A stretch of DNA of 64,000 nt, from IMG/VR virus record IMGVR_UViG_3300020180_000002. One strand, written 5' to 3'. How positions within the stretch are numbered: position 1 is the stretch's first letter; the number at the start of each line of letters is the position of its first letter. Source of the DNA: an uncultured virus (IMG/VR IMGVR_UViG_3300020180_000002) (lineage: Duplodnaviria; Heunggongvirae; Uroviricota; Caudoviricetes). The position numbers and the translations under genes were made by a program. Of the stretch, positions 2,447 through 58,385 are shown in pieces. Below the pieces are notes generated by a model, which was given only the letters and a program-made list of their open reading frames with translations, did not search any database and had not been told where the DNA came from.

Positions 2447-2776
2447 ATGTTAGACAACGAACTAGAACAAAAATCAAAGATAGAGACTCTAATGGAGATT
2501 GTTAGATTGATGAAACAACTTCAAGGAAGCCCTAAGGATAAAAAACCAATGGCAATGGAGCTTGAAGTTAAATCCCATAAAATGCCAGGTGCAGAAGAAG
2601 AATCACCTTCTGATGAAGCAAATGATCTTAGCTCTGAACTTTCTCTTGAATCTCCTGAACAAGATCAAGAAGAAATGGAACCAGAAGCAGTAGAAGGTCT
2701 TGATGAAGAATCAGAACAAGAAATGGAATTACCTGAGGCTTTCAAGAAATTGCTAGCTGAAAAACTTAAGAGATAA
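2447..2776 (+). CDS. Acidic hypothetical phage protein
   Basis: Good RBS (GAAAGGAA); Glu-rich ORF. Confidence 0.65.
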   Translation: MLDNELEQKSKIETLMEIVRLMKQLQGSPKDKKPMAMELEVKSHKMPGAEEESPSDEANDLSSELSLESPEQDQEEMEPEAVEGLDEESEQEMELPEAFKKLLAEKLKR

Positions 2777-2925
2777 TGAAATCATTAGATTCTAAAGTTA
2801 AAATTGATGTCCTTAAAGGGCTATCAAATAAAATGCGTTTTGATAAACAGCCGAAAAAAGATTTTATTATTTTAGCTGAAACAAAACGTAAGATTAATCC
2901 TGACTATAAACCATCTAAAAAATAG
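2776..2925 (+). CDS. Small basic hypothetical protein (49 aa, MKSLDSKVKIDVLKG...)
   Basis: Read manually; ATG overlaps the preceding TAA; below the ORF-track cutoff. Confidence 0.5.
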   Translation: MKSLDSKVKIDVLKGLSNKMRFDKQPKKDFIILAETKRKINPDYKPSKK

Positions 2926-2971
2926 TCTAACTAGTAAACTTTACTAGTATTAATCCAAGGGTAATTTAAAT

Positions 2972-3931
2972 ATGAGTGGCTTTAATTATACAACAACAAA
3001 TTTACTTGCTGATATCAAGCGAAGATCCTTTACTCCAATTTCACAGATTACATTCACAAATGCTGATCTTTTAAATATGGCAGATGAAGAAATTCAAGTA
3101 GGTATTGTTCCTTTCCTAATGGAAGCCAGAGAAGAGTATTTAGTTACCTATAAAGACTATAACATTGAAGGAGATACAAACGAATTTGAAGTTCCTTCTA
3201 GGTCAATCGGGGCTAAATTAAGAGATGTAACTGTCCTTACATCACCCTCTTCTCAAGGCAATCAACCTAATGAAAAGTCTATACCTCAGATAAATGCAGA
3301 AGATTCAGTCTGGAATAACAACAATAATAATCTCCTTTCAATTCAATCTTTCTTTTTAAGAGATAACAATGTTGTATTATCTCCTTCTGCATCAAGTTAC
3401 GCTGGTCAACAATTAAGACTTTATTACTTTAAACGCCCTAATAAACTTATATTACCTACAGAATGTTCTCAAATCACAAGTATTACTGATAATACATGTA
3501 CTGTAAACATTGTTCCAACATCATATGGCTCTGGACAGTCACTTACTATAACTTCAGATGTAGTTAAAGCTAAACCTCCTTTTAAATTATTAACAATGGA
3601 TATTGATTTAATAGTGGACTCCACTGCAAACACAATAACTTTTCCTGATGATTTATCTTCATATGATATTGAAATTGGTGACTATATATGCTTAGCTGGC
3701 GAAACACCAATTCCAATTTTACCAGTTGAATTACAAAGCTTTTTAGCTCAAAGGGTTGCGGTAACTTTATTATCGTCAATGGGCGACCAACGTAACTTTC
3801 AAATGGCAACTAATAGACTTGTAGAAATGGAAAAGAATATTAGAAATTTAATTTCTAATAGAGTTGAAGGTGCTAACCGTAAGGTAGTTAATAGGTTTTC
3901 TACGTTTAATCAGTCGCCGTATAGACGTTAA
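2972..3931 (+). CDS. Head-tail adaptor / tail tubular protein A-like
   Basis: Size, N-terminal helical pattern (LLADIKRRS...LLNMADEE) and position immediately before the large nozzle-like gene. Confidence 0.6.
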   Translation: MSGFNYTTTNLLADIKRRSFTPISQITFTNADLLNMADEEIQVGIVPFLMEAREEYLVTYKDYNIEGDTNEFEVPSRSIGAKLRDVTVLTSPSSQGNQPNEKSIPQINAEDSVWNNNNNNLLSIQSFFLRDNNVVLSPSASSYAGQQLRLYYFKRPNKLILPTECSQITSITDNTCTVNIVPTSYGSGQSLTITSDVVKAKPPFKLLTMDIDLIVDSTANTITFPDDLSSYDIEIGDYICLAGETPIPILPVELQSFLAQRVAVTLLSSMGDQRNFQMATNRLVEMEKNIRNLISNRVEGANRKVVNRFSTFNQSPYRR

Positions 3932-17648: not shown

Positions 17649-17724
17649 ATATAGGGTAAACCCTCGTACCTGTACTCGAAAATCGTTTATAGGTCATTCT
17701 CGTGCGTTTAAATAGGGATATAAA

Positions 17725-39888: not shown

Positions 39889-41865
39889 TTATTCATATAC
39901 AACTTTACCTGCAAATTGTTTCTGATAAATTTCAACCCTTTGGGTTAAATGCTTAGTCATATATTTAGTATACTTGAAATTGAAATCATATACAATAGCT
40001 ACCTTTTTACCAGGTGATAGTCGTACTGCTCGTCCTATTGCTTGTGTCACCATGATTTCACTTTTGCCGCCTCTAGCCATAATGAGATGTGTGGTCGTCC
40101 TTAGGTCACACCCTTCGCCAAACACAGTTGATCCGATTAGTATACGAGTTTTGTTATCATTAAAATCTTCAATAGCTTCCCTGATCTCATCCTTAGTATT
40201 ATCACCTGTTACATAAGAACAGGTGATACCTGACTCAATTAAGTATTTATAAATAACATCACCTGAATGTTCTTTTTTGTCAATAAGAATAAGAATAGGC
40301 TCGTCTTTGGGTATTTTATTTTTAACTAAATCCTTAATAGATTCAAGTAGTTCTTTACATTTATAGTTAATTTTATATTCATTTTGATAATTACGATCAG
40401 GTTTACCCGATAGGGGTATAATCCTAAACTCCACAGGCGTTAGGTATCCTTCTTTAGTGGCCTGTATTGCATTGTAATCATATATCACTTCACCCGACAT
40501 ACCTTGAAGGTCCATAAGTTTAGAGTCATTGCGAGTATATGTAGCAGTCATGTTTAAACGAAAGTAAATAGGCTGTAGTGCATTTAAAAGATCAAGATAG
40601 GAGTCAGACGCACTATTTGATACTAAAAGACCATTGGCAAAATAATTATGATTATCTTTAACCTCGATATCATATACAGTCGGATATAATCGTCTAGTTG
40701 CCACGCCATTGCAATATAAATTTTTTATTCGTTTTATTGATTTTATTTTACTCATTTTTGATGTATTATCAAACAATTTATTACAAATAGGGCAACCCGC
40801 TTCAGTTTGAATTATAAAATCATCTTCTAATGTTAAATCTTTAGCCTCGGTATACCCTCGGTTAGAAGTAAATATTTTATGATTTTCAGTACATAAAATC
40901 GTTTTAGTATGATTATTATGTTCAAATTCTATTTGTATTAATTCAGTTTTAGGTGCATCATATTTAAAATAATTTATTACTTCTTTATATTCTAATGCGC
41001 CGCTAGGTGATTTACTTAAAACTTTACATTGTATTTTTTTATCTACAATTTGTTTTATAGATATTAAGCCTTTATCTGTAATTATTTTTTCTCCGCCGCT
41101 TAAACAATGATGAGCTTCGTCCATTATGAATAAATCTACGTTGTTTAATGGGGTCTTTATAAGCCCTTGCTTATTAAGGGAAGCTAGTGTTTGTATAGTG
41201 GCAACTCTAATAGGTTTAAGCTTCTTATCTTTCTTCATATCCAGTGTAGTTATCTTTTGAACATTCTTTTCGCCAAATGAAGATACAAAGATATCATATG
41301 CTTGAGTTAATAGTGCACTAGATGGAACCACAAATAAAGTGTTTACACCTAGCTGTTTAATAATTTCTACAGCTATTCTAGTTTTACCGGCACCGCAAGC
41401 TAGCTGTAATACCCCCCTACAATGCTTTATAAACACATCAACCGCCTCCTGTTGATAGTATCTTAATGCATGGGGTTTGTTATGCCATCTAAATATATTA
41501 TATGGCGCAGGTTTAATCCGTTCGTCTGATATGGTATATTGTGAACCTTGCAAAGATTCTTTAACTAAATGAATCAGCCCTGTGGGGAATTCATTATCTT
41601 TATTTAACCAGCACACTTGATCTGGACCTAAGGCTTTAAATTTACCTCTAAGCGCCATGAGGAGGGGTATATTTCGTTTAGCACCTGCTCTTTTAATTTG
41701 ACTATAAAGCATTTGCTTTTCAAGAATAACGTCTTCATTAGTATAAGTTAATGATTTTTTTACCTTTTCAATATCAATGGAGGTAAAACCGTTAAGCGTA
41801 CAAAATGAATTGTTAAGTTTAATTGTACTCATATATTCATTTACATTGGAATTAGATACATCCAT
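39889..41865 (-). CDS. SF2 DEAH helicase (UvsW/XPB-like) containing an intein
   Basis: LRYYQ Q-motif, ACGAGKT, DEAHH, MTAT, GEGCD and QAIGRAVR. Confidence 0.9.
   Translation of the reverse strand: MDVSNSNVNEYMSTIKLNNSFCTLNGFTSIDIEKVKKSLTYTNEDVILEKQMLYSQIKRAGAKRNIPLLMALRGKFKALGPDQVCWLNKDNEFPTGLIHLVKESLQGSQYTISDERIKPAPYNIFRWHNKPHALRYYQQEAVDVFIKHCRGVLQLACGAGKTRIAVEIIKQLGVNTLFVVPSSALLTQAYDIFVSSFGEKNVQKITTLDMKKDKKLKPIRVATIQTLASLNKQGLIKTPLNNVDLFIMDEAHHCLSGGEKIITDKGLISIKQIVDKKIQCKVLSKSPSGALEYKEVINYFKYDAPKTELIQIEFEHNNHTKTILCTENHKIFTSNRGYTEAKDLTLEDDFIIQTEAGCPICNKLFDNTSKMSKIKSIKRIKNLYCNGVATRRLYPTVYDIEVKDNHNYFANGLLVSNSASDSYLDLLNALQPIYFRLNMTATYTRNDSKLMDLQGMSGEVIYDYNAIQATKEGYLTPVEFRIIPLSGKPDRNYQNEYKINYKCKELLESIKDLVKNKIPKDEPILILIDKKEHSGDVIYKYLIESGITCSYVTGDNTKDEIREAIEDFNDNKTRILIGSTVFGEGCDLRTTTHLIMARGGKSEIMVTQAIGRAVRLSPGKKVAIVYDFNFKYTKYMTKHLTQRVEIYQKQFAGKVVYE
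40615..41106 (-). mobile_element. Mini-intein (164 aa) in the helicase
   Basis: Begins CLSGGEKI directly after DEAHH; block B CTENHKIF; block F/G VYDIEVKDNHNYFANGLLVSN followed by Ser; no endonuclease domain. Confidence 0.9.
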
Positions 41866-42098
41866 GCATGTGGATTTCTATGGTCAGCTGTTAATAGTTT
41901 AATTATTTCATATTTAAAATAAGTTGATGTTTTATATAAATAGCCAAATTGTTTACATAAATGTTTCATACACTATAGAGCCATAAATAATTCAACTCAT
42001 TAATTTTGCTAAATGGATATTCTCTTTCTAATACAACGGTTTTAAGTTTAAAAGAATATACACTTACAAAATAATAAAAATTAAGTTGTTTAACTAGA

Positions 42099-43262
42099 TT
42101 ATTCATTACTCGATTTAATTCTTACTAAACTACCGTAAGGTGGTTTAACTGAATCATTATTTATTACCCATAAACATTTATAAGTAACTTCTTTAGCATC
42201 AGGAAATTCAGCATATCCATCCGTCAAGTAAATTACCCCTTTAAATCGTTCTTCAATGGCTATATCATGGACCGCAATAAAACTTGTACCGCCTTGACAT
42301 AAACGTGAAGCTTCAAATCCTTTTACATATTTAGCACGTTGGTGTACATTAGTGTCAAATACTGCAATTTCAATATCAATATTTCCAGTTGAGTTAATAG
42401 CTTCAATTTCTGAATAGAAGGCCCTAAGGTCATCATCACTAACGCTGCCGCTGCTATCAATTCCGATTAGAATCTCAGTCTTAGGAATCTTTTTAATACC
42501 AGGTATTTTACTGCCAAATCGTCTACTAGGACGTTTCCATGTATTTAAAGTATTGACATCAATTAAACTTTGTGTAAATTGACGTAGCACTTGCTGCCAT
42601 GGTATTTGTTTACTAGCTTCATATTGAAACATAAAGTCTTTAACGTCTTTAGGTAGCTCTCCAGCTGAAAGTGTCTTAGCTTTTTTAGTCGCATTAGCCA
42701 CTGCTTCTTTCATTAGATCTTTATTATTAGTAGAATCTTTAAAATACTCATGATCTTGATGGCTGCTATTTTGTACTTTAGCTTTAGATTTTAATTGAGC
42801 ATAATAATTAATCCAGCTATCGCCAGTTGTAAAATCAAAGTGTTTAGGATAAACAGGCTGCATTTCAGCTTTTTTTACATCAGGCCCCATCAGTTTACTT
42901 TTTACAAGTTCTTCGATGTAAGGGTTAATCTCTAGATCCATAGCGATATTAGCCATTTGCATTTGAGTTTCAATACCCATTTTTGCACTAATAGAATCTA
43001 ATAAACCTTCTTTAGTTTGTTTAATATGATCTTTATAGATATGACCAAATTCATGAAGGATAATACCGGCCTGCTCTTCCATTGGTAACTTTGAAAATAG
43101 AGTGGGGTTGATGACCATCTCGATTCTGTTTTGCACTTTAACAGCCGCAATATAAGGCTGTTTATCATCTAATGTAATCTTACATAATTGTAAAAGAGAA
43201 TAAAAAAAACTGTAATTCTTTAAAAGATAAAGCTTAACTGGCCTTAAATCTAATTCATCCAT
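42099..43262 (-). CDS. Metallopeptidase-like plus vWA domain protein (DUF2201-type)
   Basis: HEFGH motif; MIDAS DSSGS, GGT and YLTDG motifs. Confidence 0.85.
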   Translation of the reverse strand: MDELDLRPVKLYLLKNYSFFYSLLQLCKITLDDKQPYIAAVKVQNRIEMVINPTLFSKLPMEEQAGIILHEFGHIYKDHIKQTKEGLLDSISAKMGIETQMQMANIAMDLEINPYIEELVKSKLMGPDVKKAEMQPVYPKHFDFTTGDSWINYYAQLKSKAKVQNSSHQDHEYFKDSTNNKDLMKEAVANATKKAKTLSAGELPKDVKDFMFQYEASKQIPWQQVLRQFTQSLIDVNTLNTWKRPSRRFGSKIPGIKKIPKTEILIGIDSSGSVSDDDLRAFYSEIEAINSTGNIDIEIAVFDTNVHQRAKYVKGFEASRLCQGGTSFIAVHDIAIEERFKGVIYLTDGYAEFPDAKEVTYKCLWVINNDSVKPPYGSLVRIKSSNE

Positions 43263-43456
43263 AAACTGCTCTCTTTCTCAATTAACAATATGATATAAGT
43301 GTCTTTAACCCCAGTGCGCTCGACCGAAAACTCTTCGGCCACGTGGAATACATTATTTTGGAGTTGATAAATCCGCCAAGAGACAAATCCGGTAGCTAGC
43401 GCCGCCAATCCTGCTGCGGCGCTGGAAATGACAGACATAAGTTCGTATGAAGTCAT
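43250..43456 (-). pseudogene. Truncated foreign membrane-protein gene fused to the repeat sequence
   Basis: First 52 codons are in the GC-richer block (TM helix, ATGA overlap with hsdS). The last 16 residues come from the 36-bp repeat and the adjoining phage sequence. Confidence 0.6.
43265..43300. repeat. 36-bp direct repeat, copy 1 (ACTGCTCTCTTTCTCAATTAACAATATGATATAAGT)
   Basis: Identical to 46129-46164; flanking bases differ on both sides. Confidence 0.95.
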
Positions 43457-44622
43457 GCTTTAACCCTCACTTTTCCAGTGAGTAGCTGCTGCATTAGACC
43501 TTGCTTCTGTTTCCACAAATTTGCACGGATCTCACCATAGCGCGCACCAGCGAGAGTTATAGAATTGAGCAGATTTGTAATATTGTCTTGAACAGAACGA
43601 GTCGGAACATCCAGAGTGATTGACTCCAGCTCAGACTTGTTGAGCTTTGCTCGCGTCCCGCCATTCAAAACCGGAGTAATATCCCTATGCACCAGGCTAT
43701 AAAACAAGAAATCCTGACTCACTAAATTACTGCGTGCGCGGAGAACGTGTGCATGATTGTTTACCCAAGACTTTCCACGAATTTGGTAAGCGATGGGTCT
43801 TGTTCGATATTCAGAAAAATTACCCCCGTCCTCAGCTAGGAGGACTAATGGCTCATCAAAAATGAACTCATTAATACTATCTACCTGGCCATTTGCTCCA
43901 TAGTACGGATAGGAGCCCTGCATTACGGCACGCTGTTCTTGGTTTAGGGGCTTTCGTTTATTGTCTAAAATGTCACATGATTCTGAAATGCTAAGTTTTC
44001 GGGCCGAAGGAATGTTTTTAGAATAAATGAGCCTTCGTAGAAGTTCCGATTTTAATCTGAAGATTGATCGTAAAACTGAGTCCACCTCCTCAATCCCCCG
44101 ATCCCAGCAGGAGAGGATTTCGGCGATTTTCTTTTGTTCGGGGAGAGGAGGGAGCGAAATCGCAAACAATCTCTGCGCCGTAATCGGAACCTGGTTTCGC
44201 GTCGATTGACCCATTACTTTTTCATACTGTTTTCTAAATATGTAGGAAGACATCGATTGCATTAAAAAGTCTTCGGACAACTTTTTAGCGTCCGTGCGAA
44301 ACAGAGTAAGAGTAGTACTAAGAATTGCTTCGGGTATACCGATGAGTTTCGCAACAGGACCAACCGTTGCATTATGTGCAAAGAGGACATCTCCCGCTCT
44401 TGCTTTGCCTTTTCGAAGCGAATCGGCCTTCTCTCTGGTAAGGTACTTTGCTTTAGCGAGGTCAACTACACCGCCAATAATACAATTTGCCGAAAGGTAG
44501 GGTATGCCAGCAGAAACGAACTCATCTGAAGTTGGATATAGTTCCCCATGATTTCCATCAATATGATCTACGATCGATCCATCATCTAAAAGAGATTGAA
44601 TTGAACGGGTTGGCCAACTCAC
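43453..44622 (-). CDS. hsdS: Type I restriction-modification specificity subunit
   Basis: Two TRDs separated by LPPLPEQKKIAEIL; C-terminal KQGLMQQLLTGKVRV; GTGA overlap with hsdM. Confidence 0.93.
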   Translation of the reverse strand: MSWPTRSIQSLLDDGSIVDHIDGNHGELYPTSDEFVSAGIPYLSANCIIGGVVDLAKAKYLTREKADSLRKGKARAGDVLFAHNATVGPVAKLIGIPEAILSTTLTLFRTDAKKLSEDFLMQSMSSYIFRKQYEKVMGQSTRNQVPITAQRLFAISLPPLPEQKKIAEILSCWDRGIEEVDSVLRSIFRLKSELLRRLIYSKNIPSARKLSISESCDILDNKRKPLNQEQRAVMQGSYPYYGANGQVDSINEFIFDEPLVLLAEDGGNFSEYRTRPIAYQIRGKSWVNNHAHVLRARSNLVSQDFLFYSLVHRDITPVLNGGTRAKLNKSELESITLDVPTRSVQDNITNLLNSITLAGARYGEIRANLWKQKQGLMQQLLTGKVRVKA

Positions 44623-46127
44623 AACCCCAACTCCTTAAGATACCGATTCATCTCCTTACGAGTTTCAGCAAGCTGTCCTTCGATCTGCTCGATCTCCTTC
44701 TGCACAGCCTTAATGTCGATCTGCTCTTCTTCTTCGGCAGTATCTACGTAGCGCGGGATGTTGAGATTGAACTCGTTCTCACGAATCTGATCGAGACTCG
44801 CGACAAAGGAATACTTTTCTTCAGTCTTTCGCTCTTTGAACACTCGCAACACATGCTGAATGTCTTCAGGGCGAAGCTTGTTTTGATTTTTGCCTTCTTG
44901 GTACTCCCGGCTGGCATCAATAAAAAGCACGTCGTCGGTCTTCTTGCCTTTATTCAAGATCAAAATAGCCGCAGGAATTCCTGTTCCGTAAAAGAGATTG
45001 CTCGGTAGACCAATCACAGCGTCCAGATAGTTTTCTTCAATGAGTCGTTGCCGAATTGTCCCTTCGCTAGAGCCTCGAAACAAAACTCCATGAGGTACAA
45101 CGACGCCGACCTTTCCGTTCTTTGCGCTCGCCGTTTCGATCATGTGCGAAATGAATGCAAAGTCGCCTTTGCTCTTAGGCGGAATACCGCGATGAAAGCG
45201 GCTAAACGGATCGCCTGCAGCATGTTCTGCGCCCCACTTATCAAGCGAGAATGGTGGATTTGCGACGACGATCTCAAAGTTCATAAGCTTGTCTTTTTCG
45301 ATAAGCTTTGGATTATTGAGAGTATCGCCCCACTCGATGCGGGCGTTGTCCATGCCGTGCAGAAACATATTCATGCGAGAAAGCGCCCAGGTGGCGCCGT
45401 TGTTCTCTTGGCCGTAGAGCGAAAAATCATCGCTCCCGATCTCTTGAGCTACGCGAATCAGAAGCGAACCCGACCCACAAGCAGGGTCGCAGATGCGGTT
45501 ACCCTTTTTCGCCTGAAGGAGTTTAGCGAGTAAGATCGCTACTTCGGTAGGCGTATAAAATTCCCCGCCTTTTTTACCGGCGTCGGGCGCGAATCGAGAA
45601 ATAAGATACTCGTACGCGTTACCGATGATGTCTTGTTTGCCGACCTTCGAAGGTCTGAGATCCAGAACAGGATTAGCAAAATCACCAATCAGAAGCTCAA
45701 GCCTGCGGTTACGTTCTTTTGTCTGGCCTAGGTTAGACTCGCTATTGAAGTCGATGTTTCTAAACACACCTTCGAGTTTGGCTTTGTTAGCCTCTTCGAT
45801 TTGCTCAAGAATATTGTTAATGAACTCGCCAATTTTTACGGATTTTCGGTGCTCGTAGATGTCATCAAACGTGCATCCATCTGGAACGATAAAGCGCTCT
45901 CGGGCCAACATGCGTTTGGCGCGCGTTTCGTCGCCTTTGTGTTCTTTCAGGTAAGCGTCTTTTTTATCCTTCCAGACATCACTTAGGTATTTGATGAACA
46001 AGAAAACCAAAATGTAGTTTTTGTACTCGGATGGATCGACCGTACCGCGAAAAGTGTCGCAGGCTTTCCAGAGGATTTTATTGATTTCTTCTTGGTTAAT
46101 TTGAACGACAGGTTCTTTAGTGGTCAT
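44619..46127 (-). CDS. hsdM: Type I restriction-modification N6-adenine methyltransferase subunit
   Basis: LWKACDTFRG, GEFYTP, DPACGSGSLL (motif I), ANPPF (motif IV), PHGVLFRG and NLNIPRYV; ATG at 46127, one base after the repeat. Confidence 0.96.
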   Translation of the reverse strand: MTTKEPVVQINQEEINKILWKACDTFRGTVDPSEYKNYILVFLFIKYLSDVWKDKKDAYLKEHKGDETRAKRMLARERFIVPDGCTFDDIYEHRKSVKIGEFINNILEQIEEANKAKLEGVFRNIDFNSESNLGQTKERNRRLELLIGDFANPVLDLRPSKVGKQDIIGNAYEYLISRFAPDAGKKGGEFYTPTEVAILLAKLLQAKKGNRICDPACGSGSLLIRVAQEIGSDDFSLYGQENNGATWALSRMNMFLHGMDNARIEWGDTLNNPKLIEKDKLMNFEIVVANPPFSLDKWGAEHAAGDPFSRFHRGIPPKSKGDFAFISHMIETASAKNGKVGVVVPHGVLFRGSSEGTIRQRLIEENYLDAVIGLPSNLFYGTGIPAAILILNKGKKTDDVLFIDASREYQEGKNQNKLRPEDIQHVLRVFKERKTEEKYSFVASLDQIRENEFNLNIPRYVDTAEEEEQIDIKAVQKEIEQIEGQLAETRKEMNRYLKELGL

Positions 46128-46128
46128 G

Positions 46129-46164
46129 ACTGCTCTCTTTCTCAATTAACAATATGATATAAGT
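46129..46164. repeat. 36-bp direct repeat, copy 2 (contains GAGAAAGAGAG RBS on the - strand)
   Basis: Identical to 43265-43300. Confidence 0.95.
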
Positions 46165-46221
46165 TATAATGTTTGCCTAATTGTAAAGTTAACTGGTTCA
46201 TTTATATATTATCTCTTTATT

Positions 46222-46250
46222 AGAGTATAACAGTTACTTCTCACTGTCAA
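46222..46250 (-). promoter_or_regulatory. Sigma70-type promoter TTGACA-17-TACTCT (or TTGACA-15-TATACT) upstream of hsdM and vWA
   Basis: Perfect -35 hexamer in the intergenic gap after the AAA gene. Confidence 0.55.
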
Positions 46251-46283
46251 GCCACCCAACTTGAGGCATGTGTCGCCTATAAA

Positions 46284-47630
46284 TTAAGCTTGCTCTTTCT
46301 TTTTGTTCTTATTAACTTCTTTAGTAGCTGCCATAAACTTATCATAAAGGCCTTTATGTCCTTTTACTTTGATAAGATCATCTCGATACATAAAAAAGAT
46401 AATTGAATTAAAAGAGTTAAATCGTTTAATTTGATTTTTATGATGTTCTTCAGTTGTTAAACTGCCGTCATTTGCTAAGAATGGGGGCGTAGTAATTAAT
46501 GCATGGCTGATTTGAAACAACGCAGGTGTTTCCATGTTATTTAAAAACGCAACTAAATTAGTAAGTTTATCTGCAATACCGCAGAAGCCCGACTTTACAA
46601 ACCCATTTAGTTCTTCAATACATTCTTTAACAAGTTTTTTATCAACATCTCTATCAAATTCAAGAATACTTACATTATAATCAAAACTATATGCAACTTG
46701 TTCATGTAGTTGTCTAACACCTGATATGATATTCTCATGTGTTCCTGCAATTAAATCATTTTGTAATAGCTTTTCCATTTTGTTATACTTTTTAATAGCA
46801 TCTTTTGAATTTGTTACAATCTCATCAAAGGTGATAGGCTTTTCAATGGTTTCTAGGTATCCTAAAAATGCACCGGCAGCTTCAATACCTACAGAACAAG
46901 TGATGATATCTCTAACTAAATCAATATCAGATACATTACCTTCTTCTTCGATTACATTAAGAATATTAGATACGGCATTAGTAAGAAGTCTAGGACAAGG
47001 TTCCATCTTGATAAGGGTATCAAGTTTCTTTTCTGCACCAGTAATTTCAGGTCTATGTTTAAGAAATCCTAGTAATGTCTTATTGAATTTAGAATTACCT
47101 TCTGCCCAGTTAATAAATTCTTTATTCTCTGGTTCAAATGGCACCACGATAAAACGTTTAACTAGTGCCGATGTCATTGTATTGGCGGTGGTATATTCTG
47201 CGCTGGCGGGGTTAATAGCGCCACAGATATAGCTATCTGGGTGAAGACGATGAGTATGAATACGACCTTCAAGTACAAGCTGTAGCATACCTGATTCAAC
47301 ATCAACACGTGCATTGTTAAGTTCATCAAGAAAGATAACACAAGGCTCATGAGGCATCCATTCAGGTCTAGCCCATGATGTAACTTTACTTACCTTTTTA
47401 TTACCTTCTTCATCTAACAATGTAAGTGTATTTACTTCAGGGATGCCAATAAAATCGCCCATTTCTTGTTGAGCGGCAAAGATAGAAACAAATTTATGAT
47501 TAGGAAATACTTCCTTAGCAATCTGTTCAGTAATTTGAGTTTTACCAATTCCTGAGTGTCCAACTAGCAAAAACGGCTGCTTTGCTTTCATTGCTAATCG
47601 CATGATTCTTTGTGATTGTTTAATATTCAT
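46284..47630 (-). CDS. MoxR-like / dynein-related AAA+ ATPase
   Basis: GHSGIGKT, IFLDELNN, AINP, ALVKRF and PCPR motifs; usual partner of vWA/DUF2201 proteins. Confidence 0.85.
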   Translation of the reverse strand: MNIKQSQRIMRLAMKAKQPFLLVGHSGIGKTQITEQIAKEVFPNHKFVSIFAAQQEMGDFIGIPEVNTLTLLDEEGNKKVSKVTSWARPEWMPHEPCVIFLDELNNARVDVESGMLQLVLEGRIHTHRLHPDSYICGAINPASAEYTTANTMTSALVKRFIVVPFEPENKEFINWAEGNSKFNKTLLGFLKHRPEITGAEKKLDTLIKMEPCPRLLTNAVSNILNVIEEEGNVSDIDLVRDIITCSVGIEAAGAFLGYLETIEKPITFDEIVTNSKDAIKKYNKMEKLLQNDLIAGTHENIISGVRQLHEQVAYSFDYNVSILEFDRDVDKKLVKECIEELNGFVKSGFCGIADKLTNLVAFLNNMETPALFQISHALITTPPFLANDGSLTTEEHHKNQIKRFNSFNSIIFFMYRDDLIKVKGHKGLYDKFMAATKEVNKNKKKEQA

Positions 47631-47647
47631 ATCTTACATGCTCCTCT

Positions 47648-48580
47648 TTAATATCCATCTTCATCAATTGTTAAACTTGATAAGTTGAATTTTTTACGCC
47701 ATTTTCTTAAAGATGATTGTCTTTCAGTTTCTTCATCATCTTTATCTTCATCATATCGATATTCTTTTAATCTGTCAATAGCGTCTTGAAAAGAAACATT
47801 TAAACATAAAACACTAATAACAAGATCTTTAAGATGGTCAATAGTCATGCCATCTGTTTCTTTTACCCATAGGTCTACATCTATATTCTCATCTGGAAGG
47901 AGTTTACTAGTAATATAAAGCCTACGAGTTGCTTCATTAGGTAGCGGAATCTCAATAACACTAGCAAACCGACTAGGCCGATTTCTAAACCTAGCTGGAA
48001 TACGATCTAAGTAGTTAGTGGTGGCCAAATAAACAATATTATCAATTTGATTTTGACCATCTAGTAATGAAAGGTAACCAGATTCATCCGAATTAAGAGC
48101 AGAATCAAATTCTTCCCACACTACTAAGCATCTGATATTACCTTCAATTTCTCTAATAGCTTTAAGGGCGTGAGTTAATGTACCGGGGGTTGGGCCAAAG
48201 AATACTATACCCCCTGCTTTCACTTCTGCTTCCATGATTTGCATCACGCAGGATGTTTTTCCGGTACCTGGTTTGCCGTGCATAAGAATACCGCGTTTAT
48301 AAACGATATTACGTCTCTCAAATTTATCCCTGGTAGCTTGATTCCAAAAGTTATTAACATCTTTAATAACAATTTCAGATGTAAAATCAGGTAAAGTAAT
48401 TAATCCATCGGATACCACTTGCATGGGGGCTACATATATTGCGCCACTTTTATCTACTTCCAGTGTGTATACACCAGGTGGTAGTTTGTTATAAGTAACA
48501 GAAGGCTGCCCAAAATAGTAATCTGTTCCAGATTTTTCATAATGAGTGACACCTAGTTTTGTTTCATTAAGTATTTTCAT
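47648..48580 (-). CDS. AAA+ ATPase
   Basis: GKPGTGKT, WEE Walker B variant, LSLLDG, TTNY and RPSRF. Confidence 0.85.
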   Translation of the reverse strand: MKILNETKLGVTHYEKSGTDYYFGQPSVTYNKLPPGVYTLEVDKSGAIYVAPMQVVSDGLITLPDFTSEIVIKDVNNFWNQATRDKFERRNIVYKRGILMHGKPGTGKTSCVMQIMEAEVKAGGIVFFGPTPGTLTHALKAIREIEGNIRCLVVWEEFDSALNSDESGYLSLLDGQNQIDNIVYLATTNYLDRIPARFRNRPSRFASVIEIPLPNEATRRLYITSKLLPDENIDVDLWVKETDGMTIDHLKDLVISVLCLNVSFQDAIDRLKEYRYDEDKDDEETERQSSLRKWRKKFNLSSLTIDEDGY

Positions 48581-48884
48581 TTATATTCCTTCATTTACAT
48601 TGTATCTATAAATCCAGTATGTATAATCCGCCCATTGCCATGTATTCTTATATTGTTTCCATATACCAATGATGTTTTGATTAAAGTAAATTAATTGAAC
48701 TCCATATCTTAAGTGAATTTGTAATAAAAGTTTGTTCATTGCTCTTCATCTTTAATCATTGTATCCCAGTCTGGTTCCCATTGAGCCGCTTCTTCGATAG
48801 CTTTAGTTAGCTCTTCATCAGTTGGCTCTCTGCGTAGTTCTTCACATAACGCTTCAAATATTTCTTCTTCAATATTAAAGTAAT

Positions 48885-49310
48885 TCATATAACTGGGTTC
48901 CTTCTATTAAAAAATTCTTCCATTAAACGTTTAGTTACTTGAATAATTTGTTTATTTTTTAAATATGTACAATAGGCTTCCATGATGGCCTTGTGACTAG
49001 GTACATCAAAAGTAAATTTAATTCCAAAGCCTAGTGATTCAGTAGAACCTTTTTTTAAAGTCCATCTCTTCCATTTAACAGTCCCTGTTAATTCAAGAAT
49101 ACCTAAATCTTTAGGTAGTACAAACTTAACACGGATATCTTCACCAATAACTGGAAATTTACTTGATTTAATGAATACACCATCTGACGTAATATCAGTT
49201 ATAGAACAGCTTTCTCCTGTCACGGTGGTTGATGTCCAGTAACATGCTTCTACTAAAAGGGGGATTCTTATTTTAGAACGTTTTTCTTTATTTACCAGGT
49301 TATTGTCCAT
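48885..49310 (-). CDS. PilZ domain protein
   Basis: EKRSKIR (RxxxR) and DITSDG (D-x-S/T-x-x-G) motifs; G-x-V-x-W; GFGIKF. Confidence 0.8.
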   Translation of the reverse strand: MDNNLVNKEKRSKIRIPLLVEACYWTSTTVTGESCSITDITSDGVFIKSSKFPVIGEDIRVKFVLPKDLGILELTGTVKWKRWTLKKGSTESLGFGIKFTFDVPSHKAIMEAYCTYLKNKQIIQVTKRLMEEFFNRRNPVI

Positions 49311-49492
49311 ATGATATATCCTAACATGATTAAATAAACTAGCGCAAGATACCCTTTACGAATTCTATCGAGTGATTCTAAGTCATTGTAATATATAGCA
49401 ATTACATAAAATAGATATTGACATCCAAGCGCCAATAGAATAAACATGGCTAGAAATGATCTAACCTTGTATTCGAAGCTCCATTCTGGCAT
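49292..49492 (-). CDS. Small two-TM membrane protein
   Basis: Two hydrophobic helices. Confidence 0.5.
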   Translation of the reverse strand: MPEWSFEYKVRSFLAMFILLALGCQYLFYVIAIYYNDLESLDRIRKGYLALVYLIMLGYIIWTITW

Positions 49493-49642
49493 TAGCTATT
49501 CTCGTAATTACTTTTAATATAGTTGACAACATCTTCAATTAGTGATATAGGATCTGTTTCAAGTTTAGCAGTTTGCCAGTGATCTGATCCTAATTGCAAA
49601 TACCTAATTTCAGTGATACCATTTTCAGTTGATATGATTAGT

Positions 49643-49855
49643 TTATAATTCATCAGTTGGTTTCTTTCCTGCGAGTTGAATATAATGTAACAATTGAGGT
49701 GCAATCTGACCTAGAGTTGCAAGAAAGTGAGCATACTGAGGAAGCTTCTCAATTGAATCTTTAGCCATGGCTCCAGCTAAGAAGGCAATATCAAGCTCTT
49801 CTAGCTTTTCAGCATTAGCATACGCTTTAATAAAATCTTTAAGTCCGCCTTCCAT
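49643..49855 (-). CDS. Hypothetical protein
   Basis: ORF in operon. Confidence 0.55.
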   Translation of the reverse strand: MEGGLKDFIKAYANAEKLEELDIAFLAGAMAKDSIEKLPQYAHFLATLGQIAPQLLHYIQLAGKKPTDEL

Positions 49856-49857
49856 GA

Positions 49858-50373
49858 TTAATGATGCTCGTTATAAATGTTGCCGTTAGTATCAATAGAG
49901 AAGAAACATCCGCTATTGTCGGTAGTGATATAATTAACGCCCGCCTTTAGAATAGAAAACCTAGTCATATTTCCAGCTGCGTTGTTACTGAAAGATGCAA
50001 TAATGGTTCCATTAGCAAGCTTTAAAAGCACTTCATCTTGCCCGCCCGATGCGCCGCATGGGTCAATAATGTTAACAATTCCATATTGTTGGTTAGGTGC
50101 ATCTTCGCCATTAGCTCCGTCACATACAACTTCGGAGTCTTGTACTTCTGATAGATCAAGTACGTTATTGCGATTCATATCAAGACCTGTTTTTACAAAT
50201 ACACCTGCTTCTGATGCACATACAGATGCATCTGAGGTAAACCGAAGTGTAGAAAGTAAACCATTGTAACCATCTAAGCCATTAGACCCGGCATCACCTT
50301 TAATTAGTTTCTCTTGGTACACTTCTTGGCCACATCCGGCCGACAATAAAGTTATAAATAATAGTTTTTTCAT
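49858..50373 (-). CDS. Lipoprotein with short collagen-like Gly-X-Y repeats
   Basis: Lipobox SAGC; GDAGSNGLDG and GANGED repeats; D-x-N-x-N-x-x-L-D EF-hand-like loop; IIDPCG motif. Confidence 0.7.
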   Translation of the reverse strand: MKKLLFITLLSAGCGQEVYQEKLIKGDAGSNGLDGYNGLLSTLRFTSDASVCASEAGVFVKTGLDMNRNNVLDLSEVQDSEVVCDGANGEDAPNQQYGIVNIIDPCGASGGQDEVLLKLANGTIIASFSNNAAGNMTRFSILKAGVNYITTDNSGCFFSIDTNGNIYNEHH

Positions 50374-50579
50374 TTTTCAATCCTCACAGTTATATTATCA
50401 TCATATTGCCCTAATGTTTCTTCAAACAATGGAGCCAGTTTACATTCTAATTTGAGACGATCAATCGCCTCAAGCATTTCTAAATCACATTCATTAATCT
50501 TCTTTGTTTTAAGCATATCAGAAGTATCAAGCATAGTCAATAAATTTAATAGTCTATAATGTCTACTTTTTAATTGCAT
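50370..50579 (-). CDS. Hypothetical protein
   Basis: ORF preceded by a (GA)n tract. Confidence 0.55.
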   Translation of the reverse strand: MQLKSRHYRLLNLLTMLDTSDMLKTKKINECDLEMLEAIDRLKLECKLAPLFEETLGQYDDNITVRIEK

Positions 50580-50600
50580 ATTATTCTCTCTCTCTCTCTC

Positions 50601-50786
50601 CTATTTCAATTCAATATTCAAATATTCTTTGCCGTCATATGACGATAGCTTAGTTTTAGCTGATTCATCTCCATCGGCAACTAGCCCGCCATATTCAAAT
50701 GCGTTAAACTTCACTTCTAAGTTACCGTATTGTTCTTTATATTCCGATAACAATTGAATAAGATCTGTAATTCTATTTAATTCCAT
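50601..50786 (-). CDS. Hypothetical protein
   Basis: ORF with RBS (AAGGAG). Confidence 0.55.
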   Translation of the reverse strand: MELNRITDLIQLLSEYKEQYGNLEVKFNAFEYGGLVADGDESAKTKLSSYDGKEYLNIELK

Positions 50787-51048
50787 TTACATTCTCCTTA
50801 TAATAAACTCTAACATCTTTTACAACATAAAACAAGTCCCCATTAGAACATTGATATTCAGTTTCTGCTTTACCTTGTGCATTCATGTAAACATTAACTG
50901 ATTCACATTTTTTATAGTTATCTGATCTAATTTGAAATTCAACTTGTTGTGATTCGGTAAATGAAGTAATAGTTGCAAAAGGGTGTACCCAGCAGGTTAA
51001 TATTGCTCCAGCTGTGAATCCAAATATTAGTTTAATCATTGTATCCAT
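50773..51048 (-). CDS. Putative exported protein
   Basis: Hydrophobic N-terminus; directly after a promoter. Confidence 0.55.
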   Translation of the reverse strand: MDTMIKLIFGFTAGAILTCWVHPFATITSFTESQQVEFQIRSDNYKKCESVNVYMNAQGKAETEYQCSNGDLFYVVKDVRVYYKENVNGIK

Positions 51049-51054
51049 GTTTTA

Positions 51055-51083
51055 AGATTAACATGGTTCTATGATGTAGTCAA
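51055..51083 (-). promoter_or_regulatory. Sigma70-type promoter TTGACT-17-TAATCT
   Basis: Hexamers with a 17-bp spacer. Confidence 0.55.
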
Positions 51084-51134
51084 CAAGGTCAAAATGCCCT
51101 ATAAACGACGTAAGGATAGGGGGTGATGTCTTAC

Positions 51135-51272
51135 TATCAACTATAGAGTGAAAATCGTTTATAGGGCAATTGTGTGCGTTTAAATAGGTAATTAGAGGGG
51201 GTGTTATATCAACTATAGAGTGAAAATCGTTTATAAGGGGTAATTGTGTGCGTTTAAATAGGTAATTAGAGG
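51135..51272. repeat. Two tandem copies of a ~65-bp dispersed motif (TATCAACTATAGAGTGAAAATCGTTTATAGGG...GTGTGCGTTTAAATAGGTAATTAGAG)
   Basis: Copies at 51135 and 51207; further copies at 54658-54722, inverted at ~55136-55190, and partial at 17678-17717. Confidence 0.9.
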
Positions 51273-53712: not shown

Positions 53713-55600
53713 AAACACAATAGGGGGTGATAGATTATAATAAACACAATAGAGAGAGAGAGAGTGTGTGTATGCGCCATATAAGACCTGTTTTATCATA
53801 TATACACACACACACACACACTTATACGGTGTATAATAAACACAATTATATCAAATATGACATTAAGTGTAATAGGTATGTATGTATCTTATACGGTGTA
53901 TAATAAACACAATTATATCAAATATGGTGGTGGTATTAAGTAATAGGTACAGTAGATACCACTATAATAGCTAACACACACACACTATAATATAATAACC
54001 ATAACAACTATAATATAATAACCATAATAGCTAACACACACCCACATACCCACCACTATAATAGCTAACACACACCCACATGCCCACCACTATAATAGCT
54101 AACACACACATATACACCCACTATAGCTAGTGTAGATACAACTAAGTGGGTGGGTGGGTATGTGTGTACAATATACCAATACTAGCTTACAATTAACAGC
54201 TTACAATTAACAGCTAACAATTAACAATTAACAGCTAACAATTAACCGTGTATACATACTGCACACCAGCAACCCGCACACACTCACTGTGCAAACTATT
54301 GCACACCAGCAACCCGCTAACAAGTATACAGCGCATACATACTCTTTCTCTCTATTACACCTATACATACCCTCTATTACCATAGGTATATATACACACT
54401 CTCTCTATTACCATAGGTATATATACACACTCTCTCTATTACACTCTCTCTATTACACACACACTCTATTATTACCATAGGTGTGTATACACACACATAT
54501 ATACACTCTATTATACCTATACACCCCCTCCCCCTATTGTTTGGTATTAGGGTATATGCACACACACACACTCTCTATTACACCTATACACACACATACT
54601 CTCTCTCTCCCCCTATTGTTTGGTGGCGGGTATGCTGTATACAGCTAACATACACACTATCAACTATAGAGTGAAAATCGTTTATAGGGGGCAATTGTGT
54701 GCGTTTAAATAGGTAATTAGAGAGAGGGTGTATGTATATGTATGTTAGCTGTATGCGCATACACACACACACACACACACTTCTCTTGCACGTACGTAAA
54801 CATTAAACGGTTAACAGATGGCTCTAATTGGGTTTGGTTGGTATTGCGTACACACACACCCCTATGTAATAGCTAACACATACATATACCTACCTATGTT
54901 AGCTATATACACATCAGCTCTGTGTAGAGAGAGAGAGAGAGAGTGTATACCGTATACTTGAACACACACTGTATACCACCACCCCCAGTTGGGGACGGAG
55001 GGGTATGCTAATGGTTAATGGGTGTCCAGTATACAGCAGCGCGAGATTAAAGATTTTAGTATAAATAGGTTATAGCGGGCTGTAATGGCTAACAGCTAGC
55101 AATAAGGTGGTGGTGGTTGGTATCTAGTTTTATAATGCCTGTTAAACGAACACAATCACCCTATAAACGATTTTCACTCTATAGTTGATAGGTAGAGAGG
55201 AGAGAGGTGTATACACCGTTGTATATTACAGTGGTGGCGGTGATTAAACATATGGTTTACAGTTTACTATACACTGTAAACAATGTTATAATGTGTGTCA
55301 AGTTATAGTTATGTTATGGTTATTATATTATAGTTATGGTTATAATGTCAAGTTATGGTTGTATTAATAAATCCATAGTATGTAAATGAGTTTTATCACA
55401 TAGAAAGTACATAGGAAATGGGTTATAGTGTGTGTAGTGTAGTGTAGTTTTATAGTTTGTTATAATTATGTTAAGATTGTGTTAATAAACACCATAGGTA
55501 GGGGGGGTTTTATCACATAGAAAGTACATAGGAAATGGGTTATAATGAAAACAGTGTGTAACGAACGAGGTTGACGTGAGGTTGATTTTAAAATGAAAAG
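53713..55600. repeat. Low-complexity, microsatellite- and tandem-repeat-rich non-coding region
   Basis: (CA)n, (GA)n and (GGT)n tracts; duplicated 39-bp (53821, 53888) and 38-bp (55390, 55507) units; ACAATTAACAGCT-type array at ~54190-54245. Confidence 0.9.
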
Positions 55601-56363: not shown

Positions 56364-56373
56364 AATATTGTTC

Positions 56374-56445
56374 ACCGAGGTGGCGAAGAGGAAACGCAGC
56401 ACGCTGTTAACGTGCCTATCGTAGGTTCGAATCCTACCCTCGGTG
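56374..56445 (+). tRNA. tRNA-Asn (GTT)
   Basis: Acceptor stem ACCGAGG/CCTCGGT, anticodon arm GCACG-CTGTTAA-CGTGC, T arm GTAGG-TTCGAAT-CCTAC; CCA not encoded. Confidence 0.92.
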
Positions 56446-56477
56446 GAGAGTATATATTTTAAAAAGGAGATAATAAC

Positions 56478-57452: not shown

Positions 57453-57509
57453 ATTATTAAGTATCATATGGATTTACCTTTTAAATTACTTATAGTTGAA
57501 CATCTTAAA

Positions 57510-57672
57510 TAATACTAATTATTATAGTTAACAGTTAACAGTATACAGAATACTAATACTAATTATTATAGTTAACTGTTAGCTAGTATACAGTATACAG
57601 TATACAGAATACTAATACTAATTATTATAGTTAACTGTTAGCTAGTATACAGTATACAGTATACAGAATACT
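57510..57672. repeat. 59-bp tandem repeat (two exact copies plus one degenerate) with internal AGTATAC heptamers
   Basis: Units start at 57551 and 57610; degenerate copy from ~57510. Confidence 0.85.
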
Positions 57673-58061
57673 AGCTAACAGAACACAGCGAGACCTCATG
57701 GTCAAATCCCATTTGAGCAAATTATTACTGGTTAAACCGCTGATAGATACCTTGTATACTACTTGTAGCTAAGTCTTAACAACTAGGAAGCTAGGAAGTT
57801 CTATATTTGACCTTTGAGCTAGGCATTGAGAACCAAGACTCCGGACCTACTATGTCCTATATCTAAATATCTATTTTATGATCTAATAAGCTGTTCACTG
57901 ACTAAGCGTGTCTCGTAAATGTTCAACCAATTTCAAATACTCAGTCAACTCTACACTTTGGCTATCATCGCCGTTTTCTTTTACGTCTAAACTCCAATTG
58001 CGATATAAAAGACGTTTATTTCTAATACGATAAAACATATATGTTTAGCCGTATTACTAAT

Positions 58062-58090
58062 ATGTTACAATAGAACCTATTAATTGTCAA
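58062..58090 (-). promoter_or_regulatory. Sigma70-type promoter TTGACA-17-TAACAT facing an ORF-less structured region
   Basis: Perfect -35 hexamer, 17-bp spacer. Confidence 0.5.
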
Positions 58091-58385
58091 CTAGTATTTA
58101 TAATATATTGATTTAATTAGCCTTTAATAACATTATAATAACATTATAATATATTGATTTAATTAGCCTTTAATAACATTATAATAATTATAAATAAATA
58201 GTAAGAATTATAATAAGTATTATATAAAGAGTATTAGTTTAGGTTAGCACCTTCAACTTAAAACACATATTTGAGTGATCATCCTACTAAGAACCTTTAT
58301 ATTAAAATAAGCTTATTCCACACACTACCATGGAGCAGCTTGCCCCTTTAGTTAACTTAATTGAAACCACCAAGGAGATAATTCA

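Follow-up and report, generated by a model that had tools for sequence, protein, structure and literature searches.

The DNA analysed here, called the window below, is a stretch of 64,000 nucleotides (nt) from the uncultured virus IMG/VR IMGVR_UViG_3300020180_000002 (Caudoviricetes). On its minus strand it carries the genes hsdM and hsdS of a type I restriction–modification (R-M) system, set between two identical copies of a 36-nt sequence (the 36-mer) that is the leader of the phage gene behind them. The DNA between the copies is foreign to the phage and ends in the broken remains of a bacterial R-M operon. An earlier reading of the letters alone (the original prediction) had proposed that the 36-mer is a translation-initiation module, with the foreign hsdM docked at the ribosome-binding site (RBS) of the phage gene. 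The features at the locus are as follows.

43301–46128, minus strand: foreign segment of 2,828 bp, GC content 0.44–0.49; this segment and one repeat copy account for the 2,864 bp by which filled and empty sites differ.
46129–46164, minus strand: 36-mer copy A, a leader of phage origin that includes a purine-rich, RBS-like run, 1 nt 5' of the hsdM ATG (exact match; the joint is also present in metagenome contig L087 and in sequencing run X2).
44619–46127, minus strand: hsdM, type I N6-adenine methyltransferase subunit of 502 amino acids, apparently intact (Pfam N6_Mtase, 7e-107; HsdM_N, 7e-32).
43453–44622, minus strand: hsdS, specificity subunit of 389 amino acids with two target-recognition stretches (Pfam Methylase_S, 4e-24).
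43265–43300, minus strand: 36-mer copy B, the identical leader, 2 nt 5' of the vWA-gene ATG (TT-ATG).
42099–43262, minus strand: vWA/metallopeptidase gene of 387 amino acids (Pfam DUF2201_N and DUF2201; phrog_1314, 3e-57), the displaced downstream gene.

An exact-match search finds the 36-mer twice in the window, both times on the minus strand, and a separate scan for exact repeats recovers the same pair; no copy arose by chance in 100 dinucleotide-preserving shuffles. The repeat is exactly 36 nt long, with mismatching bases adjoining it on either side. Copy A runs into C-ATG and the HsdM frame and copy B into TT-ATG and the vWA/metallopeptidase frame, so that both the duplication and the two start-codon contexts are as originally described. 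The GC content of the inter-repeat DNA, 0.44–0.49, compares with 0.33–0.34 in both neighbouring genes and 0.343 in the whole window. No other long-range exact repeat at least 16 nt long brackets GC-anomalous DNA in the window; the remaining long repeats are tandem or lie in native-GC intergenic DNA at 51–58 kb. The duplicated unit includes the purine-rich, RBS-like leader of the vWA gene (GAGAAAGAGAG), and similar purine-rich leaders precede other genes of the same phage. The account of a duplicated RBS leader, with the displaced vWA gene keeping a predicted RBS of its own, is therefore apt as a description. The inverted ACT...AGT ends noted earlier are indeed there, but they measure only 3 nt, and no significant fold is predicted for the 36-mer (−1.3 kcal/mol, z +0.87; z +1.78 for the copy-B region, both against shuffles).

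The insert is present in some relatives and absent from others. Two IMG/VR contigs hold the exact 36-mer: one has two copies and matches the window without a difference over 7,001 nt (100% identity), and the other, L002, has one. L002 aligns to 41104–43300 and to 46129–51166 of the window at 99.2–99.3% identity, with the 36-mer common to both alignments and the insert absent; over the nearest 300 nt on each side, 300 of 300 and 297 of 300 positions agree. L002 is the same phage minus 2,864 nt. Sequencing runs were also mapped, four of the 16 listed (X2, X7 and X11 among them) being compared with the window as k=31 assemblies. A contig of 6,179 nt from the freshwater run X11, at depth 8, skips from 43264 to 46129 (2,864 nt), with 36 bases that fit either side. 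In the microbial-mat run X2, contigs span the whole insert and both insert/36-mer joints, and break inside the repeats as 31-mer graphs should. When metagenomes were scanned for the final 24 nt of the repeat, one more contig came up: L087, from a microbial mat, in which 80 nt of phage leader run without interruption into the 36-mer, C-ATG and hsdM. From L087, the run data and L002 it follows that the insertion is real and that filled and empty forms both exist in nature.

These same data bear on the proposal that the locus is an assembly artefact, made by threading a bacterial hsdMS contig into a phage contig through a shared short sequence. The k=31 contigs of X2 do break inside the 36-mer, and their linkage is carried by overlaps of 24–30 nt. 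Against this stand the full identity of the two-copy IMG/VR contig, the single-contig order of L087, which comes from another data set, and the 36 nt of AT-rich phage leader found at both ends, which would not be expected of a bacterial gene. We give an artefact almost no credence. Two groups of candidate sequences were rejected. Pieces of hsdM at about 90% identity in runs X8 and X11 are other organisms' genes. An 812-nt contig of run X7, which joins 46128 to 43265 through one 36-mer, was not accepted as evidence, since the run has a depth of about 4–6x, the true flanks are uncovered there and 31-mers cannot resolve a 36-nt repeat. Run X11 also yielded a 376-nt contig (depth 3.3) that matches 45874–46135 with five differences and shares just the last 7 nt of the 36-mer; its other 114 letters do not match the window. 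The contig may represent a second context of this hsdM, or its donor context, but no weight is placed on it. The original prediction had proposed a search of relatives for other cargo between the copies. Across all occurrences of the leader that were found (two IMG/VR contigs, one metagenome contig and four runs), a thin sample, hsdM or the vWA gene lies behind each copy, and each relative carries the same hsdM cargo or none.

By sequence, the inserted pair has the features of a type I methyltransferase. HsdM combines the HsdM_N and N6_Mtase domains and retains DPACGSG at residue 214 and NPPF at residue 290, which we take to be the S-adenosylmethionine-binding motif and the NPPF/Y catalytic motif, respectively. 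The adjacent hsdS overlaps the hsdM stop codon, encodes its two recognition stretches and has its own AAGGAG-type RBS within the 3' end of hsdM. Together, the two intact subunits most likely make up an M2S1 methyltransferase. This is not a complete type I R-M system, as hsdR is reduced to 19 codons (43301–43357). Homologues of HsdM begin 0–9 residues downstream of the methionine of the window, some of them with M-T-T-K or M-A-T-K, and the hsdM ATG therefore is, or lies close to, the native start. As far as the boundary of the repeat shows, it is correct that the foreign DNA begins one base before this ATG. The hsdM of run X2 has six substitutions within 22 nt (45498–45519), in a contig that otherwise differs from the window at 12 places in 2,888 nt; the cluster resembles a short conversion patch.

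The other end of the insert reveals where the genes came from. Directly behind hsdS lies a 68-codon open reading frame (ORF68; 43250–43456, minus strand), which is a chimera of three parts.

43358–43456, minus strand: codons 1–33, the first part of a gene for a small membrane protein (gene X); they match the N-terminus of the 173-residue protein P0032 at 78% identity.
43301–43357, minus strand: codons 34–52, an internal hsdR fragment corresponding to about residues 131–151 of the HsdR of L007 (best match, residues 129–151), in the HSDR_N domain.
43250–43300, minus strand: codons 53–68, read-through of copy B into the vWA start, probably meaningless.

L007, from a Bdellovibrionota metagenome-assembled genome (MAG), holds the closest genomic relative of HsdM, at 88% amino-acid and 76% nucleotide identity; the other matches, among the best 80 of 467 confirmed, reach 62–70%. 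The best non-self HsdM protein in a large protein database is 86% identical. The L007 operon runs hsdM, a RhuM-family gene, a small ORF, hsdS, a 199-residue gene and hsdR, the last with HSDR_N (Pfam, 2e-38) and SWI2_SNF2 domains. P0032 is homologous to the 199-residue gene between hsdS and hsdR (E 4e-20), and the ATGA overlap between the start of ORF68 and the stop of hsdS has the same arrangement in L007. By tblastn, the hsdR fragment finds matches in 33 of 81 loci. It halts just before the R-P-D...E-x-K nuclease motif, at the point where homologues run on R-P-D-I-V-L-F-V-N-G-I-P. The donor operon was thus of the L007 type, with a full set of type I R-M genes; M and S were kept intact and the rest is debris. 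The remnant consists of the first 33 codons of gene X and a piece of HsdR, and therefore the capture was not bounded by gene ends; the insert contains at least three novel joints (phage/hsdM, gene X/hsdR and hsdR/phage). The L007 locus has two further peculiarities. At 2692–3732 the RhuM-family gene (Pfam, 1e-115) and a 74-residue ORF separate hsdM from hsdS, which are adjacent in the phage, and an HsdS-like half gene lies directly 5' of hsdM.

The comparison with HsdR also provides insight into the downstream joint. Here the window reads K-D | T-Y, in which T-Y is encoded by the first six bases (ACTTAT) of copy B, and the HsdR of L007 reads K-E-T-Y at the aligned place. Among 31 aligned HsdR homologues, 16 have T at the joint and only L007 has T-Y, the other 30 having R in place of Y. 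Because agreement with the nearest relative at two residues would hardly come about by chance, the alignment suggests that the donor shared up to 6 nt (ACNTAY) with the phage at the hsdR-side joint, in which case the phage-derived duplication would be 30–36 nt. These six bases of copy B may equally well stem from the donor hsdR. At the hsdM-side joint, where the 36-mer ends in ...GAGCAGT, the leader of L007 is uninformative for comparison with GAGAGCAGT. The original prediction had set against its own proposal the prospect of relatives that never carry other cargo and of ordinary microhomology with the donor. The first was found, under sparse sampling, and the second is suggested for the downstream joint.

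Upstream of copy A lies the sequence that had been read as a promoter.

46224–46250, minus strand: promoter-like element, with TTGACA at 46250–46245, a 15-nt spacer and TATACT at 46229–46224, and TG one base before TATACT; function putative.

The TTGACA hexamer is present as predicted, 81–86 nt upstream of copy A. The element is not called by a consensus scan, which needs a spacer of 16–18 nt, and promoter-like sites are not enriched around the locus (seven observed, 7.3 expected from shuffles). It is retained in the empty-site phage L002, where the second hexamer is TATATT rather than the TATACT of the filled phage, a difference of one single-nucleotide polymorphism (SNP).

The next gene upstream and the rest of the window identify the kind of phage that received the insert.

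46284–47630, minus strand: MoxR-like AAA ATPase gene (Pfam AAA_5; phrog_1297, 1e-46), the upstream neighbour.

A PHROG scan of the 84 ORFs of the window detected a terminase, a portal, an internal virion protein, DNA polymerase pieces, a primase-helicase and an intein-bearing helicase, together with a UvsX-like recombinase, SbcC- and SbcD-like nuclease subunits and an HNH endonuclease. The vWA protein matches nine named phage records at 22–27% identity, eight of them from Erwinia or Vibrio phages. The two records examined are both Schitoviridae, with the AAA ATPase directly 5' of the vWA homologue across a gap of 6–12 nt. The gene set and this AAA–vWA order mark the phage as putatively lytic and N4-like, and it encodes recombination proteins of its own. 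A comparison of the window with named phage genomes gave no DNA match, whether close or remote. In IMG/VR, relatives of the vWA protein beyond the two known contigs reach 26–30% identity at best, and relatives at 51–60% (P0003–P0018) are known as proteins alone. A tblastn search with the AAA ATPase against 79 distant vWA loci gave no match; in 72 of these loci the nearest upstream ORF of at least 100 residues, of whatever family, abuts or overlaps the vWA gene, which says little about linkage to the AAA ATPase. The window and L002 are near-identical phages with two mobile-insertion differences, the hsdMS cassette and a mini-intein. The mini-intein, of about 492 nt (40617–41103, minus strand; Pfam Intein_splicing, residues 269–417), sits in the helicase gene at 39889–41865 and is missing from the 99.7% identical L002.

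For the origin of the arrangement, the original prediction had offered two explanations: strong selection among random captures, or a dedicated mechanism, similar to integron or spacer acquisition, that duplicates the site and expresses the inserted cargo. It had also seen no integrase or Cas1 in the window, and the scan of the 84 ORFs agrees: no integrase, transposase or Cas protein (Cas1 and Cas4 included) is among them. A dedicated cassette-capture system, one that recognises and duplicates the 36-mer and docks leaderless cargo behind the phage RBS, would account for an upstream joint 1 nt from the native ATG and for a site duplicated cleanly with no other scar. Its enzyme could lie outside the window, since the genome is at least 76.7 kb long and the window 64 kb. 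Yet the downstream joint falls within a truncated hsdR, a further joint with internal deletion lies inside the remnant, the 36-mer forms no hairpin and the insert ends have no terminal inverted repeats. The window holds a single site with a single cargo, no array and no second repeat pair of such a type. We regard such a system as highly improbable; the second of the two explanations is left unsupported, and the first fits the evidence.

Comparison with the known systems leads to the same place. Integron cassettes (attI/attC, IntI) resemble the hsdMS cassette in that promoterless cargo stands behind a resident expression signal. Here, by contrast, no IntI is found among the ORFs of the window, there is no attC-type hairpin, the leader occurrences show neither varied cassettes nor arrays, the boundary lies in a broken gene and the duplication is 36 bp; the cassette is not a member of this class. 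CRISPR adaptation is likewise not indicated, there being no Cas genes in the window and only two repeat copies, 2,864 nt apart. A transposon-type insertion, in which staggered cuts would have produced a 36-bp target-site duplication, would explain why the insert is flanked by a direct duplication of its target. The window has no transposase and the insert no terminal inverted repeats; its ends are instead a start codon and a broken gene, and a duplication of 36 bp far exceeds those that transposons are known to make at their targets. We find this explanation scarcely credible. On the features tested, membership of the integron, transposon and CRISPR-adaptation classes is ruled out, which leaves little room for a new system of such a kind.

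A different proposal is modular exchange, in which the cassette arose in another phage and entered by homologous recombination in the flanks, with the 36-mer as a short conserved boundary and the two forms interconverting in mixed infections. The UvsX-like and SbcCD-like proteins encoded by the phage are in agreement with this, as are the flanks of the filled and empty forms, which differ by less than 1%. Contig L087 is relevant here. Aligned from 1 to 1675 with 46244–44900 of the window, it is about 99.5% identical through the first ~795 nt of hsdM, to about 45330, just past the residues N-M-F-L-H-G-M. Beyond this point it carries a different hsdM allele, with a GC content of 0.57–0.63 and best matches of 65–67% amino-acid identity to loci of Leptonemataceae/Leptospiraceae MAGs (L015, L010). 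This mosaic hsdM is either the product of recombination with another hsdM or an assembly chimera. The switch after ~795 nt would fit recombination inside the cassette, and the six-SNP cluster of run X2 can be counted on the same side. The same alternative was weighed by the authors who described mycobacteriophage LRRHood (PMC3029335). However, modular exchange moves the original capture elsewhere, where the first insertion would still be illegitimate. An IMG/VR search for other phages with this hsdM found none, the four loci returned being the window's own contig and three at 40–64% identity. L087, for its part, is a contig of 1.95x coverage in which the switch falls right after a strongly conserved motif, and it may be a chimera. 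We judge modular exchange to be unlikely as the origin of the cassette. A more elaborate proposal, which we consider very unlikely, is that the vWA leader is a recurrent docking point at which short-homology recombination of the phage UvsX/SbcCD type repeatedly swaps or reloads counter-defence cargo behind the existing RBS, with the cassette leaving as a circle by way of the 36-bp repeat and re-entering related phages. Its traces would be the mosaic hsdM of L087, the X7 junction rejected above and the 376-nt contig of X11 to which no weight was given.

We conclude that the arrangement probably reflects a one-off illegitimate, microhomology-mediated capture of a type I R-M operon fragment by a lytic N4-like phage, kept afterwards by selection. 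A host fragment would have been joined to replicating phage DNA at two points 30–36 bp apart in the vWA leader; alternatively, a replicating strand would have switched to host DNA and come back 30–36 bp behind where it had left. On both routes the interval is duplicated, and the leader is thus present on both sides of the insert. End joining or template switching at a few bases of microhomology could supply the joints. Most products of this kind would be dead or useless. In the variant that was kept, hsdM would lie 1 nt behind a working phage RBS, with a spacing one base shorter than that of the vWA gene, while the vWA gene would retain its own RBS and hsdS bring another. Gene X and hsdR may have been destroyed in the same event or by later deletions. 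The GC content, not yet ameliorated, and the lack of any difference between the repeat copies indicate that the event was recent. The 36-bp direct repeat would also permit precise loss of the cassette by homologous recombination.

Several points weigh against this conclusion. A joint placed exactly 1 nt before the native start codon would be a remarkable accident if the break were random. The microhomology on the hsdR side comes from one close homologue, that of L007. The closest donor-like sequences stand at 76% nucleotide and 88% amino-acid identity in genomes and 86% in proteins, and microhomology on the hsdM side is hypothetical. Only about four independent relatives carry the leader, and the lack of other cargo is to that extent weakly sampled. 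L002 and the X11 contig may have arisen later, by precise deletion, and need not be ancestral. An excised circle or a tandem copy would produce the X7 junction, but so, equally, would a k=31 graph at low depth. What the sequences show is the anatomy of the locus, the empty site, the foreign origin of the insert and the operon remnants; the joining mechanism, expression of hsdM from the 36-mer, methyltransferase activity and the anti-restriction role are inferences.

HsdM and HsdS would mark phage DNA at the target of the donor system and so shield progeny from hosts with that restriction system; orphan phage methyltransferases are known to guard phage DNA against restriction. Self-methylation against restriction is probably the role of the cassette. 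It shares with the orphan methyltransferases a modification half without its nuclease, drawn from the host gene pool. The known examples differ in being mostly single-subunit and type II-like, whereas here a type I M and S pair is found with the hsdR stump still visible and with an activity that is predicted. A lactococcal phage, reportedly, acquired part of the methylase gene of a host plasmid.

With regard to mechanism, the likeness to template switching by microhomology-mediated break-induced replication (MMBIR) or fork stalling and template switching (FoSTeS) lies in the several novel joints, a short duplication at the return point and, probably, microhomology of a few bases. Such mechanisms have been described mainly in cellular genomes, and nothing at this locus favours replication-based over break-and-join chemistry.

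The closest parallel among phages is found in genes 43–46 of mycobacteriophage LRRHood, a foreign insert of 1.35 kb flanked by 29-bp direct repeats whose sequence is single-copy in relatives (Pope et al. 2011; PMC3029335). Its authors left both readings open, gain by recombination or loss between the repeats, and mosaic joints are there generally ascribed to illegitimate recombination, possibly helped by phage recombinases (PMC3029335). The two cases are alike in having about 1–3 kb of foreign DNA, a repeat of about 30 bp (29 bp there, 36 bp here) and a cargo plausibly meant for phage–host or phage–phage conflict. They differ in that the LRRHood cargo is a repressor from another phage cluster and the repeat lies at the 3' end of a gene, whereas the cassette described here is a bacterial R-M fragment and its repeat an initiation leader. 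New with respect to LRRHood are a donor operon recognisable from its debris, a type I M and S cargo and a duplicated translation-initiation leader. A literature search, not exhaustive, found no report of an hsdM–hsdS pair in an N4-like phage; one paper (PMC3915230) names no more than a Lar-like gene.

The window contains other repeats as well. One of about 65–70 nt is present as two tandem copies at 51133–51271 and as a third at 54656–54722, 3.5 kb off and 97% identical, and brackets native-GC DNA with small ORFs. A related piece of 39 nt lies at 17678–17716, and the repeat may be a regulatory or genome-end element. The stretches 53750–55550 and 57500–58190 are dense in short dispersed and tandem repeats, with CA-rich and TATAATAGCTAACACAC-type units, tandem units of 59 nt and 46 nt, and exact pairs of 38–44 nt. 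These arrays sit in a largely non-coding stretch by a tRNA-Asn gene (56373–56446).

What the hsdMS locus offers is an unusually legible record of gene capture from host to phage. The states before and after survive at about 99% identity, and the type of the donor operon can be named from the broken pieces left behind. No new mechanism is called for: the locus is a clean, datable worked example of how accessory genes enter such genomes and of how repeat-flanked inserts may be read. It indicates how a lytic phage can take up one half of a bacterial defence and, with its own RBS, make from it what is probably a means of counter-defence.

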